Below the pieces are notes generated by a model, which worked only from the letters and a program-made list of their open reading frames with translations, was not told the DNA's origin and ran no database searches. A stretch of 64,000 nucleotides of DNA from Octopus sinensis (lineage: Eukaryota): assembly GCF_006345805.1 (NCBI RefSeq), contig NC_043013.1:24490001-24554000 (forward strand), read 5' to 3'. Made by a program: the position numbers and the translations under genes. Positions 1-61,212 of the stretch are shown here, in pieces (position 1 is the first letter of the stretch; each line of letters starts with the position of its first letter).

Positions 1-556
1 TCCACGGCACTTTCCGAAGCCAAAGTTGCACCAAAAGAAGGTCATAGTGACTGTATGGTGGTCTGCGACCGGTCTCATCCATCACAGCTTTTTGGATCCA
101 GGCGAAACCATTACGGCGGAGAACTACTGTCAGCAAATGGATGAAATGCATAAGAAACTCCGACAACAGCCAGCATCGGTCAATAGAAAAGGACCAATTC
201 TCCACGACAAAGCTCGACCGCACGTCGCACAACTGACCTTGCAGAAATTGAACGAATTGGGCTACGGAACTCTGCCTCATCCGCCATACTCACCAGTCCT
301 CTCACCTACTGACTGGAACTTTTTCAAGCATCTCGACAACTTCCTGTGTGAGAAATGCTTCAAAAACTAAGACGATGCCAAACATACCATCAACGACTTC
401 ATTGCCACCAGAACGCATAGATAAGCTTGTTTCGCGTTGCCAAAAGTGTGTTGATTCTGATGGTGTTCATTTCGGTTAATAAAGTTTTGTTTGAGCCGAG
501 ATATGTGTATTTGAATTTAAAGGTTAAGAACCGCAAGAACTTTCTTGACACCCTAA
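1..556 (+). mobile_element. Mariner transposon 3' part (degenerate transposase C-terminus plus right TIR)
   Basis: ORF 26-370 has mariner motifs (KVIVTVWW, ILHDKARPH, HPPYSPVLSPTDWNFF); premature stop at 370; terminal ...CGCAAGAACTTTCTTGACACCCTAA followed by TA. Confidence 0.9.
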
Positions 557-19297: not shown

Positions 19298-19405
19298 GCC
19301 AAGTTTGGGACAAGTTCTGGATCTTCCAGATGTATATTATGGCATATCTTTCTCGCCTACGCTCTAAGGAATAGAGTCTCAATCTCTTGAGTCTTTCCCA
19401 ATAGC
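19298..19405 (-). mobile_element. CR1-like LINE fragment
   Basis: LSYWERLKRLRLYSLERRRERYAIIYIWKI. Confidence 0.85.
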
Positions 19406-19830
19406 TTAAATGTGGAAGTGATATATCTCGACTTTGCAAAGGCCTTTGATAAAGTCGATCATGGAATGATATGTCACAAACTGCGTGATCTTAGCATAGT
19501 TGGAAAACTGGGAGAATGGCTTCATGACTTTCTGAAAGATAGAAGTCAGGTGGTAGTAGCCAATGGGGCCACTTCCATTAACAGGCAAATAGTGAGCGGT
19601 GTTCCGCAGGGCACTGTTTTGGGACCACTACTGTTCATAATGGCCCTCTCAGACATGCCCTCAGCCACGCAGAGAGCCACGATCACAAGTTATACGACTG
19701 GCCGGATGGATTCTCAGAACCTTTAGAACAAGAGAAGTTGCTAAAAAGCATTCGTGAAGTAAAACCATGTAGCAACACCAAATGGCGGTGCCCAAGCATG
19801 GCCACAGCTCGTGAGCTGAAACTAGAATCA
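19406..19830 (+). mobile_element. CR1-like LINE, internally deleted (RT core joined to 3' tail)
   Basis: VIYLDFAKAFDKVDH...SGVPQGTVLGPLLF, then jumps to a later RT segment and to the tail GGCGGTGCCCAAGCATGGCCACAGC. Confidence 0.85.
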
Positions 19831-19861
19831 ATCATATGTATATATATATATTATTTATTTT

Positions 19862-21088
19862 TTATATCTAGTTTCAGCTCACAAGCTGTGGCTATGCTGT
19901 GGCACCACCATTTGGTGTTGCTACATGATTTTACTTCACGAATGCTTTTTAGCAATTGCCATTTTGGTGCATGAGAGAGTTCGATGCAGCTGCCCTCATC
20001 TGCACCTCCTGCCGTGAAGTTGGTTCATCTGGGACACCTGACAAGAAGAGATTCAGTTTTATTTTAAAGATATCTGCATCCACCCCTTGCACGTCTCTTA
20101 GGTTCTTCAGGAGGATATTGAAGAGCTGTGGGCCTCGGAAGCCCAGGCTATCATAGTATCTTGTCCTACATTTTAATGGCAAATTTGGAGTTCTTGGCAC
20201 TATGCAGTGGCGCCCAGTTCTGGCATTTGTGTAACTCTCGATGCCAAAGTTTGGGACAAGTTCTTCTAGGATCTTCCAGATGTATATTATGGCATATCTT
20301 TCTCGCCTACGCTCCAAGGAATAGAGTTTTAATCTCTTGAGTCTTTCCCAGTAGCTTATATGCTGCACAGAGGCTATCTTCTTCGAGTAGCTTCGTTAGA
20401 TCGCCTCAAGTTCTGTGATTAACTTGACACTGGATGGTGACCATAGCTGAGAGCAATAGTCAAAGTGGCTTAGGACAAGTGTCCTCCAGAGGACCATCAT
20501 GGTTTCCTGGTCTCTTGTTCTAAAGGTTCTAAGAATCCATCCGGTCAGCCGCCTACATTTCATTGCCAATTTAGCAACATGCACATGAAAGGTTGCGTCA
20601 TCACTCATGTAAATACCTAGGTCTCGCACTGATTGTGCCTCTGGGATTGCAATCCCTCCAGGTCCAGTGAATTTATTGGGTATTGCATTTAGTTTTGCAT
20701 GCTGATAGCATAAAGCTTGAAACTTTTCAGCATTGAACTGCATGCTATTCTTTTCAGCCCACTTGTATATTTTGTACAGCTCACATTGCAGGTGCTTAGT
20801 GTCTTCAGGGCTCTGTATTGCCTGTGAAACTTTTATATCATCTGCATAAATTGTGATCGTGGCTTTCATCAATAGCCTTTATAACATCGTCTTCCTTTAT
20901 ATTGATGTAATCAATCATCGCTGCCTCTGATTTTATCTCTGCAGTGGTAAAGAAGTCAGTTGGATTGCTGACTTGAAAATGCCCTAGGGGTGGAGTGAAA
21001 ATACTCTTGAATTGCTCATTTAGTATTTCACTTACCCTCATTGGTTTTCCTGTGAGTGTGCCGTCCATTTCAAAGAGTGGCCCTATCC
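19862..21088 (-). mobile_element. CR1-like LINE 3' portion, RT core deleted near 20870
   Basis: ORFs with IYADDIKV, VRDLGI, DYCSQLWSP and YSLERRRER; 3' tail at ~19865-19960. Confidence 0.9.
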
Positions 21089-27153: not shown

Positions 27154-27829
27154 AAATCCTTAAAAATGTTCTAGCCCGAAGGCCGCGGCGATGCTGGGGC
27201 ACCACCGCTGAATAAGCTATACTAATATGTGAATCCACCTCTGATACGTGGCACTTGATCAACAAGAGAGTTCGTTGCTGCTGCCCGCATCTGCGACTCC
27301 TGTTGTGAGGTAGTTTCATCTGGGACTCCCGACAAGAAGAGATCCAGTTTAGTTTTAAAGAAACCCACATTCACACCATGTAAGTCTCTCAGGCATTTAG
27401 TGAGGATGTTAAAGAGCTGTGGTCCTCTGAAACCCAAACTGTTGCAGTATCTGGACCTGTATTTTGATGGTGATGTTGGAATCTTTGGCACCATGCCCCG
27501 TTCTGCGGTTGGGGTAACTTTGAATGCCAAAGTTTGGGACAAGAGCCTCCAGGATTTTCCCGATGTATATCACCGCATATCTCTCCCGCCTCCGCTCTAG
27601 GGAGAAGAGTTTTAATACTTTCAGTTTTTCCCAGTAGCTGATATTTTGCATTGAGACGATTTTATTTGTGTAGCTTCTCTGAATTGCTTCGACTTCTGCG
27701 GTTAGTTTTATATTGTGTGGTGACCAAAGTTGGGAGCAGTAGTCCAAGCGGCTGAGGACGAATGTTTTCCAGAGGACCATCAATGTCTCTGTCTCTCCTT
27801 TTCTGAATGTTTGGAGAATCCATCCAGCT
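27154..27829 (-). mobile_element. CR1-like LINE 3' end, 5'-truncated
   Basis: AGWILQTF...DYCSQLWSP...SLERRRER...CNSLGFRGPQLFN; tail ending TTTTAAGGATTT. Confidence 0.9.
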
Positions 27830-28384
27830 ATGTACGTAAGTATACATACATAAGTGCGTACGTACGTACGTACGTATGTATACATACATAAGAGCGAACG
27901 TAAATATATATATATATATATACATACATACAAACATACGTACATACCTATATATACATACATACGTACGTATATATACAGGCGTACGTATGTGCGTGTA
28001 TATACATACATACATACGTACGTTTGTTCGTACGTATATATACATACATACGTACGTATATATACATACGTACATATGTACGTACGTACGTACGTATATG
28101 TACATAAATACATACATACATACATACATACATACATACATGCATACATACATACGTATATACATACATCCATACATACATGCATACGTACATAGATACA
28201 TACATACATACGTATATACATACATACATACGTTTATACATACATACATACGTATATACATACATACATACGTATATACATACATACATACGTATATACA
28301 TACATACATACGTATATACATACATACCTATATATATACATACATACATACGTATATATATACATTCATACGTATATATATATA
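27830..28384. repeat. (TACG)/(TACA) satellite between two LINE copies
   Basis: Direct inspection. Confidence 0.95.
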
Positions 28385-30110
28385 GCGGCCAAAGAGACAA
28401 AAATTGAGTACATCAACATCGAAGAAGATGATATCACACTAGCCATTGATGAGATTGACACAAACTCAGCTGCTGGACCTGATGGATTCCCAGCGATCCT
28501 TCTCAAATCGTGCAAACGAGCCCTTGCAAACCGCTACAGCTTCTTTTCAGAGCTTTCTTGCAAGTGGTAAGCTCCCAGTCAAACTGAAAGAGGGGGTAGG
28601 GTAATGCCCTATCCATAAGGGAGGTAGCAGAGCAGATGCTAAAAATTATAGGCCTATCTCTCTGACCTCACACATCAGCAAAGTCATGGAACGAATAGTC
28701 CGTAAGAAACTAATCATGTTCCTTGAAGAAAATGACTTACTGTCTGACACCCAGCATGGATTTCGACCAGGTAGAGGCTGCCTAACACAGCTCCTGCAGC
28801 ACTATGACTGGGTGTTGAAACAGCTACTAAATGGCTCAAATGTGGATGTAATATATCTTGACTTTGCAAAAGCCTTTGATAAAGTCGACCATGGTATGAT
28901 CTGTCATAAACTGCGTGGTCTCGGCATAGGCGGGAAACTTGGAGAGTGGCTGCACAACTTCCTAAAAGACAGAAAACAGGCAGTTGTGAGCAATGGAGCC
29001 ACCTCCAGGGAACGCAAATAACAAGCGGTGTCCCACAGGGCACTGTCTTGGGGCCACTGATGTTCATAGTGGCCCTTTCAGACATGCCTTCAGTTGCTAC
29101 GATGACCACCCTTGCTAGCTATGCAGATGACACAAAGGTCTCCCACGCAATACAGAACCCTGAAAATATTGCGCATCTGCAACATGAGCTGGACACAATA
29201 TACAGGTGGGCTGAGGACAACAACATGCAGTTAATGCAGGTAAGTTCCAGGCCCTGCGCTACTGGCACACAAAGGTAAATGACGTGAAGACTGGATACAC
29301 TGGCCCAGGAAGAATTGCAATCCCTGAGTCAAAATCAGTGCGTGACCTGGGCATTGACATGAGCAATGATGCATCTTTCCAAATGCATATTGCTAATCTG
29401 GTGATAAAATGCAGACGGCTAGCTGGATGGATTCTCCGAACTTTCAGAACAAGAGAGAAGGAGACATGATGGTCCTATGGAAAACATTTGTCCTCAGCCG
29501 CTTGGACTACTGCTCCCAACTTTGGTCACCACAAAATATAAAACAAACAGCAGAACTCGAAGCAACTCAGAGAAGCTACACAAAGAAAATCGTCTCAATG
29601 CAAAATGTCAGCTACTGGGAAAGACTGAAGGTATTAAACCTCTTCTCCCTGGAGCGGAGGCGGGAGAGATATGCAGTAATATACATCTGGAAAATCCTGG
29701 AGGGTCTTATCCCAAACTTTGGCATTCAAAATTACTCCAACCGCAGAACGGGGCGCCGCTGCGTGGTGCCAAGGATTCCAACATCACCATCAAAATACAG
29801 GTCCAGATACTGCAACAGCTTGGGTTTCAGAGGACCACAGCTTTTCAACATCCTCCCTAAATGCTGAGAGACTTACATGGTGTGGATGTGGGTTTCTTTA
29901 AAACTAAACTGGATCTCTTCTTGTTGGAAGTCCCAGATGAACCTACCTCACGACAGGAGACGCGGATGCGGGCAGCAGCATCGAACTCCCTTGTTGATCA
30001 AGTGCCACGTATCAGAGGTGGATTCACAAACTAGTGTGGCTCATTCAGCGGTGGTGCCCCAGCATGGCCGCGGCCTTCGGGCTAAAACATTTTTAAGGAT
30101 TTAAGGATTT
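28385..30110 (+). mobile_element. CR1-like LINE, 5'-truncated, with frameshifted reverse transcriptase and complete 3' tail
   Basis: AGPDGFP, NYRPISLTS, QHGFR, YLDFAKAFDKV, GVPQGTVLGP, YADD; tail ...GGCTAAAACATTTTTAAGGATTTAAGGATTT. Confidence 0.95.
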
Positions 30111-45456: not shown

Positions 45457-46050
45457 TCATGTAAATGATGAGTTAAAAACTGAGCTTCCACGCGCTCGGT
45501 AAGCTTCTTCGCGTGCATCTTGTCGCTGACCAGGTATAATAACTAGAATAACAATGTAAGCAACGATGGTGGATATGAAATAAATCCAGAACAGAAATCG
45601 ATCAATAACACATGCTATCCGCTGCCATTCTGCCACGACAATCTTCCGTGATAATAGTGCCTGATACACAGCACACGGCCATTTTTCGTCATTTTGTTTA
45701 CATTCAAAATCGATGTTTTTTTCGTTTTCTGTTTTGACTGAGATCTGGCGCGGAAAATGGTTATTGTTTTCGCATTCGGGAGACTTGTCAGAGACTTCCG
45801 GTTGGGGTGGAGCATTTTCTGGAATTATTTCTTCCTCCCTTAGCCACGTTCCTTCATCTTCGTTTTGGAGCTCTAGTGGTTCTACGGTATCAATATCGTT
45901 TTTCGTATAACGTCGATGACGTACACGTCCAACGTCATAGAGAGAACGAGGGTGTTTTTCTCTTTGAGCAGCAATTGAACCGATTGTACCGTTTTGTTTT
46001 TTATCTTTTCCGTGTTTTGTGCACGTATAAAGACCTTCTTTTTCTTCGGT
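45457..46050 (-). CDS. Nicotinic acetylcholine receptor-like subunit (alpha9/alpha10-like), last exon: intracellular loop, MA helix, TM4
   Basis: Acceptor TTTATTGCAG at 46051-46052; EWQRIACVIDRFLFWIY motif; stop TGA at 45457. Confidence 0.95.
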   Translation of the reverse strand, partial: TEEKEGLYTCTKHGKDKKQNGTIGSIAAQREKHPRSLYDVGRVRHRRYTKNDIDTVEPLELQNEDEGTWLREEEIIPENAPPQPEVSDKSPECENNNHFPRQISVKTENEKNIDFECKQNDEKWPCAVYQALLSRKIVVAEWQRIACVIDRFLFWIYFISTIVAYIVILVIIPGQRQDAREEAYRARGSSVFNSSFT

Positions 46051-48106: not shown

Positions 48107-48300
48107 AAGTGTGATAACTTTAGCAAGGTGTTCTATGTCATGTTTCATTTTTAGGGGACTAGAGGCAAACTCCAAAATCAGTTTCCTAAGCCATTTTGGG
48201 GCTCGTCTAGTTTTCATTCCTCGATTATACAGATTAATGACCATGACTGCCATTATAACTGATACAGAGGTCATAGTCATGACAAGACACAGATATATAC
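48107..48300 (-). CDS. nAChR-like subunit exon: TM3 and MX helix
   Basis: CAG|G acceptor and GTAAGT donor; GIYLCLVMTMTSVSVIMAVMVINLYNRG...APKWLRKLIL; phases match both neighbours. Confidence 0.95.
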
Positions 48301-52290: not shown

Positions 52291-52722
52291 TATATATACG
52301 ACAGGCTTCCTTCAGTTTCCGTCTACCAAATCCACTCACAAGGCTTTGGTCAGCCTGAGGCTATAGTAGCAGACAACCACGTGGTTGGGAAGCAAGCTTC
52401 TTACCACACAACCACGCCTGCGCCTAAAATAGCAGTGGTGGTCACACCTAACCAAAAAGATACCACTCCGTCATATATTCATGTATAGTAGAGGAGCCCT
52501 AATTATTTCTTAGACGGATGAGCATCTACTTAGACTTCCTTCGATATTTTATAGAAATGAAAATCAGAAAAAAAATATCAACGTTCAAAATATTTTTTTT
52601 CTTATCAAATTCTATCGGAAGGGTGTAATGCAAAACATATCGTTAGAGTTAAATTCTACAAACAATTTTTATAGCTCCTTCAATTGTCTTCAAAATATAT
52701 TTGGGAAAAAGTGTATACTTAC

Positions 52723-53267
52723 CAATAAGCGGAACAGACTCGGATGTTGCTGGAACTTGTTCAGCAATAAGAAGCATGAACATCGAAAAAGCTAAAAATA
52801 CTGAGAGACCAAGGGTGATCTTTTCCCCTGACGTTGGTGGAAGCCAAAATGTTAGCAGCGTCAATGCCGATAACATCACACAGGGAATTATAATATTAAA
52901 TATATAGTAGAAAGTTCGGCGACGAATGTATAGAGTGTATGTCATATCTGGGTGAGGATCAGGACAGCAGGAGTGGGTGCGTATGTTCTTGTCCAGTCTG
53001 ATGTCCAGTAAATCCCATTCACTGTTATTGACGTAAGTGGTCAAATCGACCGGGTTACCCTCCATCATTGTTATATAATCGATCCATAAACCGCTGTAAA
53101 TCCAGGAACCGAATCGTAAAATGCATTGTTGGTCATCAAACGGAAAATATGTAATATCAACTTTACAGGAACTTTTTAATTTGACCGGTACTGGCCAGAG
53201 AACACTGCCATTATAGTTGACCAACACATATGTGCCTTGCATAAAGCCGGTTGAGCCATCATCTGCA
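52723..53267 (-). CDS. nAChR-like subunit exon: Cys-loop, loops B/C, TM1, TM2
   Basis: CKVDITYFPFDDQQC, FGSWIY, HSCCPDPHPD, GEKITLGLSVFLAFSMFMLLIAE; TAG acceptor at 53268-53269, GTAAGT donor. Confidence 0.98.
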
Positions 53268-56859: not shown

Positions 56860-57600
56860 ACCTGGTTTCAGCCCGGAGCTGAGGTCATACTGGTACACCA
56901 CCTGTAGTTACTCGGTATTGTTTCCGGTATTGTTTTAGGTGAAGTAGCAATTTGGACGGAACTGCTCTTCTTTGCGTCTCCTGCTGCGATATGGGTTCAT
57001 CTGGTATCTCAGAAACCTGTCCAGACATTTCTTGAATATTTCCACGTCAATACCATGTAGATCTCTAAGGTTGCCTGGTAGGATGTTGAACAATTGCGGG
57101 TGCTTGAAACCCAGACTATTGCAGTATTGTGTCATTTTAGATGGGGAAGACGGGATCTTTGGTATGATGCAGTGCCGTCCAGTTCGAGGATTGGTATAGC
57201 TGTCAATTTCAAAATTGCGAGCTAAACCCTCAAAGATCTCCCAAATATTTATATATCACCGCATCTCTCTCTCTCTCTCGTCTTCTCTCCAGGGAATACA
57301 GACTGGATTGCTTCGAGTTCCCCAGTTTGTTTCATACTCTCTGGGGACCATAGTTGGGAGCAGTAGTCCAAGCGGCTGAGAACGAAAGTCTTCCTTAGGA
57401 GAAGCAGGGCCTCCGTTTTCCTGATTCTGAATGTCTTCAGAATCCACCCAGCCACTCACCTGTACAATGTTGCCATCTTGGTAATACGCACATGGAACGT
57501 TGCATCATTGCTCACGTGAACCCCCAGGTCACGCAGCGACTCTGACGTTGGGATCGTATTACCTTCTGGTTCAGTTTATTCCGATTTTAGCCTATTTTAA
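56860..57600 (-). mobile_element. Older CR1-like LINE 3' fragment (intronic)
   Basis: AGWILKTFR...LDYCSQLWSP; YCNSLGFKHPQLFNILP. Confidence 0.85.
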
Positions 57601-57852: not shown

Positions 57853-57962
57853 TTGTTGTAGATAAATGTGTCCGGTAGCCAAACATTTTTTGCTGGGACA
57901 CGTAGAGATCGCACGCTATTGTATTTCCCGGGCTCCCAATATAAGTTCTCATCTGACCATTC
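57853..57962 (-). CDS. nAChR-like subunit exon (110 bp): EWSDENLYWEPGKYNSVRSLRVPAKNVWLPDTFIYN(N), loop A
   Basis: Not in the ORF track; CTTTTTAG acceptor, GTAAGT donor; WxPD..YN motif; 110-bp size conserved in nAChR genes; phase-2 AA+T gives Asn. Confidence 0.97.
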
Positions 57963-58699: not shown

Positions 58700-59485
58700 T
58701 TGGGTCATCCCATAAATAATGCGGTTTTTCGATTGCATGAACTAAAAATCGGAGGGGTCGGGATAAACTACCTGAATCAACTTGTTATAAAAGCAGGTAG
58801 TAATTTTACCGTGTCCTTATTCTATTGCACGTTTTAAAAAGTTTAGTTCGATTTTAACAGTTATTTTTCAAATCTATTATGGAACTGACAAAGGAGCATA
58901 TTCGGTATATTTTGCTTTATGAGTTCAATAAAGGCAACAACGCAAAAGAAAGTGCGAGGAATATTAATGTAGTATCTGGGGATCGGACAATAAGCGTAAA
59001 CCAGTATCAACGGTGGTTCCAGATATTCCGAGCCGGAAACTACAGCCTAGAAGTCGAGCCTCGTCCTGGGAGATCTGTGGAGCTCGACGTGGACATCCTG
59101 CAAACCTTGGTTGGACAAGATAATACTCGGCCACATACAGCGATGACGACATTCCAAAGGCTGAAGCAGTTAGAATGGGAAACGATGCCTCTTCCACCAT
59201 ATTCGCCAGATATTGCCTCATCTGATTATCATTTATTCTGCAGTCTTCAAGATCATTTGGACGAGAAAAATATGAATTCTGTAGACGGGCTCAGAACAGT
59301 ACTGGAGGAGTACTTTTCGTGACGGATAAGTGAATTTTGGAGGAAGGATCTTGCAAGTCTACCAGATTGATGGAAGAGCATTGTAGAAAATGAAAGAGTA
59401 TATTTTAGATTAAAAATGAAGTTTATCTTAATTTTGAAAAATAAAAGAAGTAAAAAAATACCACATTGTTTATGGGATGACACAA
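58700..59485 (+). mobile_element. Mariner transposon with both TIRs and an in-frame internal deletion
   Basis: TIRs TTGGGTCATCCCATAAATAATGCGG / CCACATTGTTTATGGGATGACACAA, TA flanks; ORF 58879-59322 with HTH (HIRYILLYEF...PRPGRS) fused to QDNTRPH...YSPDIASSDYHLF. Confidence 0.92.
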
Positions 59486-61167: not shown

Positions 61168-61212
61168 CTGGTCAATAAATACGTTAGTTGTCAAAACCTG
61201 ATGTCGTTCATC
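61168..61212 (-). CDS. nAChR-like subunit micro-exon (45 bp): DERHQVLTTNVFIDQ, loop D
   Basis: Not in the ORF track; TTTCTTTCTTCTTTCCAG acceptor, GTATGT donor; matches the conserved 45-bp DEKNQVLTTNxW exon of nAChRs. Confidence 0.95.

Follow-up and report, generated by a model that had tools for sequence, protein, structure and literature searches.

A spiralian clade of nicotinic-type subunits with altered ligand-contact residues includes an octopus gene with two loop C histidines

Results

Gene Structure and Transcripts

The window, the whole 64,000-nucleotide stretch of Octopus sinensis DNA analyzed here, carries on its minus strand five of the seven coding exons of a nicotinic subunit gene. 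The gene model was built with 120 kb of neighboring genome, and coding exons 1 (G000:C17:24583349-24583292) and 2 (G000:C17:24562963-24562818) lie outside the window on the same strand. Exon 3 (45 nt; 61168..61212) encodes loop D, with Phe80 (61179-61177) at the position of Trp55, and exon 4 (110 nt; 57853..57962) encodes a WLPD motif and Tyr118 of loop A (57860-57858). The main exon, exon 5 (545 nt; 52723..53267), encodes loop E, the Cys-loop, loop B with Trp175 (53104-53102), loop F, loop C, M1, and M2, whose pore helix (52760..52825) runs from Glu-1′ to Glu20′ and contains Leu9′. M3 and the start of the intracellular loop are encoded by exon 6 (194 nt; 48107..48300), and intracellular loop and M4 by exon 7 (594 nt to the stop; 45457..46050). 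All borders are GT-AG and the 563-aa frame has no internal stop, as the sequence-only reading of this DNA had claimed of the reading frame and splice sites. The assembled protein is identical to XP_029646905.1, labeled an Octopus "alpha-10" subunit by automatic annotation. It is a Cys-loop pLGIC of the nicotinic type, with a Neur_chan_LBD and a four-TM domain (Pfam PF02931, 1e-62, and PF02932, 8e-37), a 13-residue Cys-loop, and the nAChR fold; its AlphaFold model (mean pLDDT 71) resembles α4 and α7 structures at E 1e-33. The protein atlas returned generic LBD clusters only.

Reads from four sequencing runs were used to check the gene. Runs X8 and X9 come from two studies, are RNA by guess, and have no tissue labels. 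The X8 contig leaves the exon 5 border into exon 4 and the X9 contig continues into exons 4 and 6, the exon 4/exon 5 junction being found in loose ends of both contigs and the exon 6 junction in a loose end of X9. Because these contigs cross from exon 5 into neighboring exons, spliced transcripts of the gene exist. Exon 5 has a single DNA-level match in the octopus genome, and its nearest paralogue is 61% identical over that exon. An assembly error or decaying pseudogene is ruled out with near certainty: the 563-aa frame is open, spliced contigs from two studies carry the same histidine codons, and the same loop C motif occurs in Argonauta and in 12 of the 14 cluster members examined, the other two being fragments.

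Two features of the X8 contig stand apart. At window position 53152, it has an A>G difference on the sense strand that changes a Cys-loop codon in exon 5 (ACA) from Thr to Ala. The change matches the product of A-to-I editing and could be an edit, an allele, or an error; it is absent from X9, X6, X12, and 13 cluster proteins. The same contig shows splicing at the acceptor of exon 5 yet continues into intron 5 (window 52641-52722), which can be read in frame up to a stop at 52649, a pattern of intron retention or pre-mRNA. The window also contains mariner-type transposase remnants at 58858-59322 (+), with a Mos1 HTH match, and at 2-367 (+), the latter recognized by eye. Decayed LINE-like reverse-transcriptase fragments were seen by eye in translations of 19391-20878, 27225-29864, and 56935-57255, and long (AT)n and (ATAC)n arrays lie elsewhere.

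Loop C and the Ligand Pocket

Loop C (RTHSCCPDPHPD; 52946..52981, minus strand) contains His218, the vicinal cysteines Cys220-Cys221, His225, and Asp227. HMMER pairs its HSCCPDPHPD with YECCAEIYPD of human α4, and by this alignment His218 (codon CAC, 52975-52973) and His225 (CAC, 52954-52952) occupy the positions of Y190 and Y198, and Asp227 that of D200. The sequence-only reading had both loop C tyrosines replaced by histidine, with loop A YNN, loop B GSWIY, and the vicinal cysteines (CC) retained; each of these points was borne out, YNN lying at the end of the preceding exon. It overlooked a third pocket change, that of loop D Trp55 to Phe80. The vicinal Cys pair that formally defines an nAChR α subunit is present (C220-C221); in α subunits these cysteines form a disulfide. 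Of the canonical aromatic box, Y118 (Y93) and W175 (W149) are kept, and the other three residues have become H218, H225, and F80. The ACh site is very probably noncanonical, and on this point the sequence-only reading is supported. Beyond the aromatic box, the protein has kept CC, D200, and, at position 145, a basic residue. The extracellular domain contains only three histidines (72, 218, and 225).

The histidines are neither absent from reads nor private to this assembly, two possibilities raised by the earlier reading. Runs X8, X9, and X6 span both codons without differences and X12 has a hole there; among orthologues, the H/H state is common to cephalopods, most bivalves, and limpets. Among the best 30 paralogous loci of the octopus genome, this gene alone has an H/H loop C. 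Restoration of Tyr by A-to-I editing was considered and rejected, since the genetic code does not allow it from CAC; no variant was seen at the His codons in the contigs, which drop rare variants.

Phylogenetic Placement

Orthologues were sought with the exon itself (87 proteins), with a profile (120 listed), and with an exhaustive profile search, which listed 150 proteins, 128 of them new. A FastTree phylogeny of 162 rows was built with the loop C columns removed, after P0124 and 21 near-duplicate or fragmentary cluster members had been set aside. The octopus gene falls in a 57-row clade with support of 1.0, whose rows include isoforms and congeners and are therefore not independent. In an IQ-TREE analysis of a 55-row subset, the clade received 100/100 support on a stem branch of 0.36 and was nested in a 42-row group, also supported at 100/100, that further contains the Lymnaea D and G clades plus two unnamed clades. 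Both trees were built without vertebrate α9/10, α5, and β3 and without chemotactile receptors. The clade has named members in mollusks (cephalopods, bivalves, and gastropods), annelids, nemerteans, a brachiopod, flatworms, and gnathiferans, and no named ecdysozoan or deuterostome row occurs in the clade in the 162-row tree. Seven of the 128 newly listed rows, all unnamed and none with CC, joined the clade (enlarged-clade support 0.91), so restriction to Spiralia is a search result rather than proof. By these placements, the octopus gene is a member of a well-supported, spiralian-wide clade adjoining Lymnaea nAChR D and G.

The sister clades contain Lymnaea stagnalis nAChR D (ABA60383.1) and G (ABA60386.1), which have the cation-type M2 (GEK) in common with the octopus clade; Pro at loop E position 119 is also shared in most rows. 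D, G, and their orthologues keep Y190, CC, an aromatic residue at 198, and W55, in contrast to H/H and F80 in the octopus protein. The Lymnaea member of the octopus clade is a distinct, unnamed protein (CAL1548034.1). Schistosoma mansoni AHC70335.1, which corresponds to Smp_180570 by Cys-loop match, is a member by tree and, unlike the octopus protein with its H/H loop, has a 52-residue loop without CC. Crassostrea gigas OYG10006063 is a member by its printed sequence.

The DopC channels (Courtney 2025; McRunnel 2025) are described as an amine-gated, α9/10-like family gated by dopamine (10.1101/2025.04.02.646353). They resemble the octopus clade in being α9/10-like and in having a cation pore, and some share with the octopus protein a Ser after the 190 position and a Pro after CC. 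They differ in having both tyrosines, a loop B Asp (Ser178 in the octopus protein), and Ala or Ser two residues before the loop B Trp; retention of the tyrosines and a critical role for the Asp are reported in 10.1101/2025.10.31.685654. The position of the DopC clade was fixed by a Daphnia protein, because this protein matches the Dm-DopC1 residue numbers (S123, D188, N193, Y226, E230, Y233, and N92). The same protein confirms the clade of an octopus DopC1-type gene, L006 (G000:C1); L010 (G000:C1), with Phe at 190 and Ala after the loop B Asp, is a probable DopC2 by motif. DopC identity was rejected for the gene in the window, given the separate 100/100 clades, the AU test of a forced grouping (p=0.00037), H/H, and Ser178. 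Identity as an anion channel (AChRB/LnAChR-B) was likewise rejected, as the M1-M2 linker has no Pro-Ala and GEK with E-1′ occurs in 57/57 rows.

Pocket and Pore States across the Clade

Alignment anchors place CC in 24 of the 57 clade rows: 18 are H/H, 2 Y/H, 2 H/Y, 1 Q/Y, and 1 Y/Y. The H/Y and Q/Y states belong to three heterodont clams, and the sole Y/Y row is Seison. The remaining 33 rows have lost the vicinal cysteines, 14 of them with His still present at 198. The loops of these 33 rows range from 30 to 56 residues, with one truncated row of 21. All 88 sister rows have Y190 and CC, and 87 have Y or F at 198. The CC state changed at least five times on the tree (51 non-outgroup rows), and repeated loss is the natural reading because all sisters carry CC. 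The His pair, as aligned, does not define the clade, which leaves unsupported, as the gene's defining function, the earlier idea that the pair retunes the pocket or forms a Zn2+ or proton site.

Ligand contacts are altered on both faces. W149 is invariant (57/57), and the loop A Tyr (Y93) is Phe in 20/57 rows. W55 has become F in 47/57 rows, compared with W in 86/88 sisters. On the complementary face, position 117 shows nine different residues where all 88 sisters have F, and position 109 is mixed where 87/88 sisters have M. An aromatic residue at the α7-107 position is a clade-wide gain (55/55 scored rows versus 0/88 sisters), and I150, F55, and aromatic 107 are clade-wide fixed changes across the two faces. 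M2 is near-fixed, with E-1′ and E20′ in 57/57 rows, L9′ in 54/57, and M13′ in 55/57; Ser6′, Phe8′, and Met13′ are clade-typical. A cation-selective pore is therefore predicted. The octopus and Aplysia proteins are 80% identical over M1-M3 and 20% identical in loop C. The 15-aa loop C is 100% identical in octopus, cuttlefish, Solemya, and Ylistrum; the whole extracellular domains of the two bivalves are 83-84% identical to that of octopus, and at 84% the chance of 15/15 identity is ~0.07.

Expression of the Oyster Orthologue

In PMC6896357, OYG10006063 rises from 2.7 to 6.7 RPKM between gastrula and trochophore and peaks at 14 RPKM in D-larvae. Among adult organs, labial palp shows the highest value (12.5 RPKM), compared with 0.3 RPKM in adductor muscle. 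Choline acetyltransferase is strongly expressed in labial palp (PMC6896357). Bulk coexpression was examined against 12 genes chosen from the 33 in the printed alignment, with labels assigned by motif reading. Spearman coefficients with the G-type gene were 0.52 from trochophore onward and 0.40 across organs, which did not single it out; the best developmental coefficient (0.80) was with OYG10021002, which is not a sister-clade gene. OYG10006063 tracks several other nAChR subunits in the bulk data, and no single partner emerged among the 12 genes. The profile fits a neural subunit and names no partner.

Discussion

The reading we prefer, at about an even chance of being right, is that the octopus protein is a pore-lining accessory subunit of the α5/β3 kind that forms no ACh site. 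It is a simpler account than those in the sequence-only reading, from which it was absent. A structural-partner role is likely because many snail, worm, and fluke counterparts lost loop C but kept the pore. The principal-face ligand residues are lost, CC is missing from most rows, Y/Y is almost gone, and contacts on both faces have changed around a nearly invariant pore. Vertebrate α5 and β3 offer a precedent: they too lack the Y190 equivalent and are regarded as accessory, although that role is debated (PMC9319688). By the same source, β3 has lost CC and has a loop A Phe like that of the 20 clade rows. These vertebrate subunits belong to a different lineage and neither is in the tree, so the likeness would be convergent; the accessory role is supported for them, with dispute, and we infer it for the octopus subunit. 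Vertebrate α5 retains CC. The octopus subunit goes beyond the likeness in that Tyr198 and Trp55 have also changed, with L9′ kept.

Such a subunit could have arisen by duplication of a Lymnaea D/G-like α subunit, followed by relaxed selection on the aromatic box. Tyr198 would have changed to His early and Tyr190 in mollusks; several lineages would then have dropped loop C altogether, and the slow-evolving cephalopods, bivalves, and limpets would have retained a disulfide-closed loop with two histidines. The subunit would occupy a nonbinding position in a heteropentamer whose agonist sites are supplied by canonical α subunits, and it might alter conductance, Ca2+ flux, desensitization, or trafficking of the receptor. 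One candidate for its partner is the LnAChR-G orthologue. The G-type and octopus clades have many genera in common, ranging from Seison to Aplysia, an overlap of limited weight because old single-copy genes co-occur anyway. Expression of the oyster orthologue highest in labial palp, together with its tracking of other nAChR subunits (PMC6896357), suits an accessory role, but its coexpression with the G-type gene is modest and singles out no partner. The identical loop C of octopus, Solemya, and Ylistrum is also unlike a freely drifting loop, W149, His198 in CC-less rows, and the clade-wide aromatic 107 could mark a remodeled working pocket, and the clade rows are not independent.

Conservation of W149, H198, F55, and aromatic 107 makes a new ligand the main rival to an accessory role. 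Either by itself or together with a partner, the subunit would form a cation channel that some non-ACh ligand opens through a remodeled pocket of W149, Y/F93, H198, F55, and aromatic 107, with loop C capping dispensable in most lineages; we regard this as possible but rather unlikely. The long, well-supported stem branch would suit such a switch, as would the fixed changes on both faces and the strong conservation of loop C in cephalopods, bivalves, and limpets, and a neighboring α9/10-like clade did switch to dopamine (10.1101/2025.04.02.646353). Against it, contact positions 109 and 117 and the loop C tip are highly variable, the DopC determinants are absent, with Ser at the loop B Asp site and both tyrosines replaced, and the AU test rejects joining the clade with DopC. 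The same differences from DopC tell against the earlier idea of a biogenic-amine ligand. Retention of Y93, W149, CC, D200, and the basic residue at 145, the conservative nature of W55F, and Y190 in three clade rows would instead suit a low-potency cholinergic α subunit in which His partly replaces Tyr and a response takes high concentrations of ACh, choline, or nicotine. We consider this improbable, as three of five aromatic-box residues are altered, loop C is gone in most rows, and loss of the Y190 equivalent lowers the α4 response to ACh (PMC9319688).

Sensing of protons or Zn2+ by the H-x-C-C-x3-H cluster, gating or modulating the channel, seems more doubtful still. In the alignment both histidines face the pocket at the 190 and 198 positions, and they are two of only three in the extracellular domain, but they occur together in a minority of rows, with H/Y or Q/Y in the three heterodont clams, and Tyr to His is a single transition, the cheapest change. 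The vicinal cysteines are normally joined in a disulfide and so are not free metal ligands. The ligand list of the octopus screen, as given in the Methods of 10.1101/2025.04.02.646353, includes no pH step, Zn2+, or histamine; for this reason the screen is silent on the idea even if the gene was included. A bolder synthesis, tentative and on balance unlikely, is that the clade is an unnamed spiralian family of cation channels responding to a noncholinergic signal that the usual panels leave out: protons, Zn2+, histamine, or an acidic metabolite. In cephalopods, bivalves, and limpets, the His pair would act as the sensor. The change would be a second ligand switch among α9/10-like subunits after DopC.

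Divergence of molluscan α subunits is already published, 20 of 33 oyster subunits lacking ACh residues, and divergent molluscan clades are noted in MolluscaGenes (PMC13174522). Fig. S4 of Jiao 2019 prints the oyster HSCC..HPD motif; the main text of that paper contains neither the word "histidine" nor a mention of the oyster gene. Unnamed orphan groups near α9/10 appear in a venom-gland study (10.1101/2025.06.15.659772), and a match to the octopus clade was not achieved. Smp_180570 is listed in PMC6151654 and does not appear among the RNAi targets in PMC4055736. In the literature outside subscription papers and bioRxiv supplements, we found no functional study or electrophysiology of clade members; nor did the literature searched yield a functional study of Smp_180570 or OYG10006063, or a match for the gene's accessions or for Y190H/Y198H. 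The clade is a real, uncharacterized orphan subfamily. The octopus screen covered 41 subunits and ligands including ACh, choline, betaine, and amines, and DopC2, AChRB2, and AChRB3 gave no current alone (10.1101/2025.04.02.646353). Many molluscan nAChR subunits are silent when expressed alone, and if the accessory reading is true, the clade would supply a concrete missing partner for coexpression and provide an independent invertebrate case of an α subunit turned structural. A new ligand, if that reading is true, would add a fast transmitter system in mollusks, annelids, and flatworms. The clade also forms a natural loop C series (Y/Y, Y/H, H/H, H/Y, and none) for probing the role of this loop in gating.

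Cephalopod chemotactile receptors resemble the octopus subunit in being nicotinic-derived with an altered ACh pocket, and are described as intronless and cephalopod-enriched in PMC13174522. The octopus subunit differs in its seven exons, CC, single DNA match, and Spiralia-wide orthologues. Its placement beside LnAChR D/G, in a tree that contains no chemotactile receptor, argues against membership of the chemotactile clade, as the sequence-only reading had proposed in assigning the gene to another lineage. Other divergent paralogues were seen in the octopus genome. L016 (G000:C12:66934399-66934923) is a second orphan α-type subunit with no aromatic residue at 190 and His at 198; its loop C (DCCPGDGWHP) has similar counterparts in P0371 and P0382, outside the octopus clade. 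L005 (G000:C3:49068050-49068583) is α9/10-like; in its loop C the two tyrosines remain and the vicinal cysteines have been lost. A tandem cluster at G000:C16:13.3-13.9 Mb, with at least 14 divergent Cys-loop matches in open frames near 400 aa, is probably an intronless array of putative chemotactile receptors.
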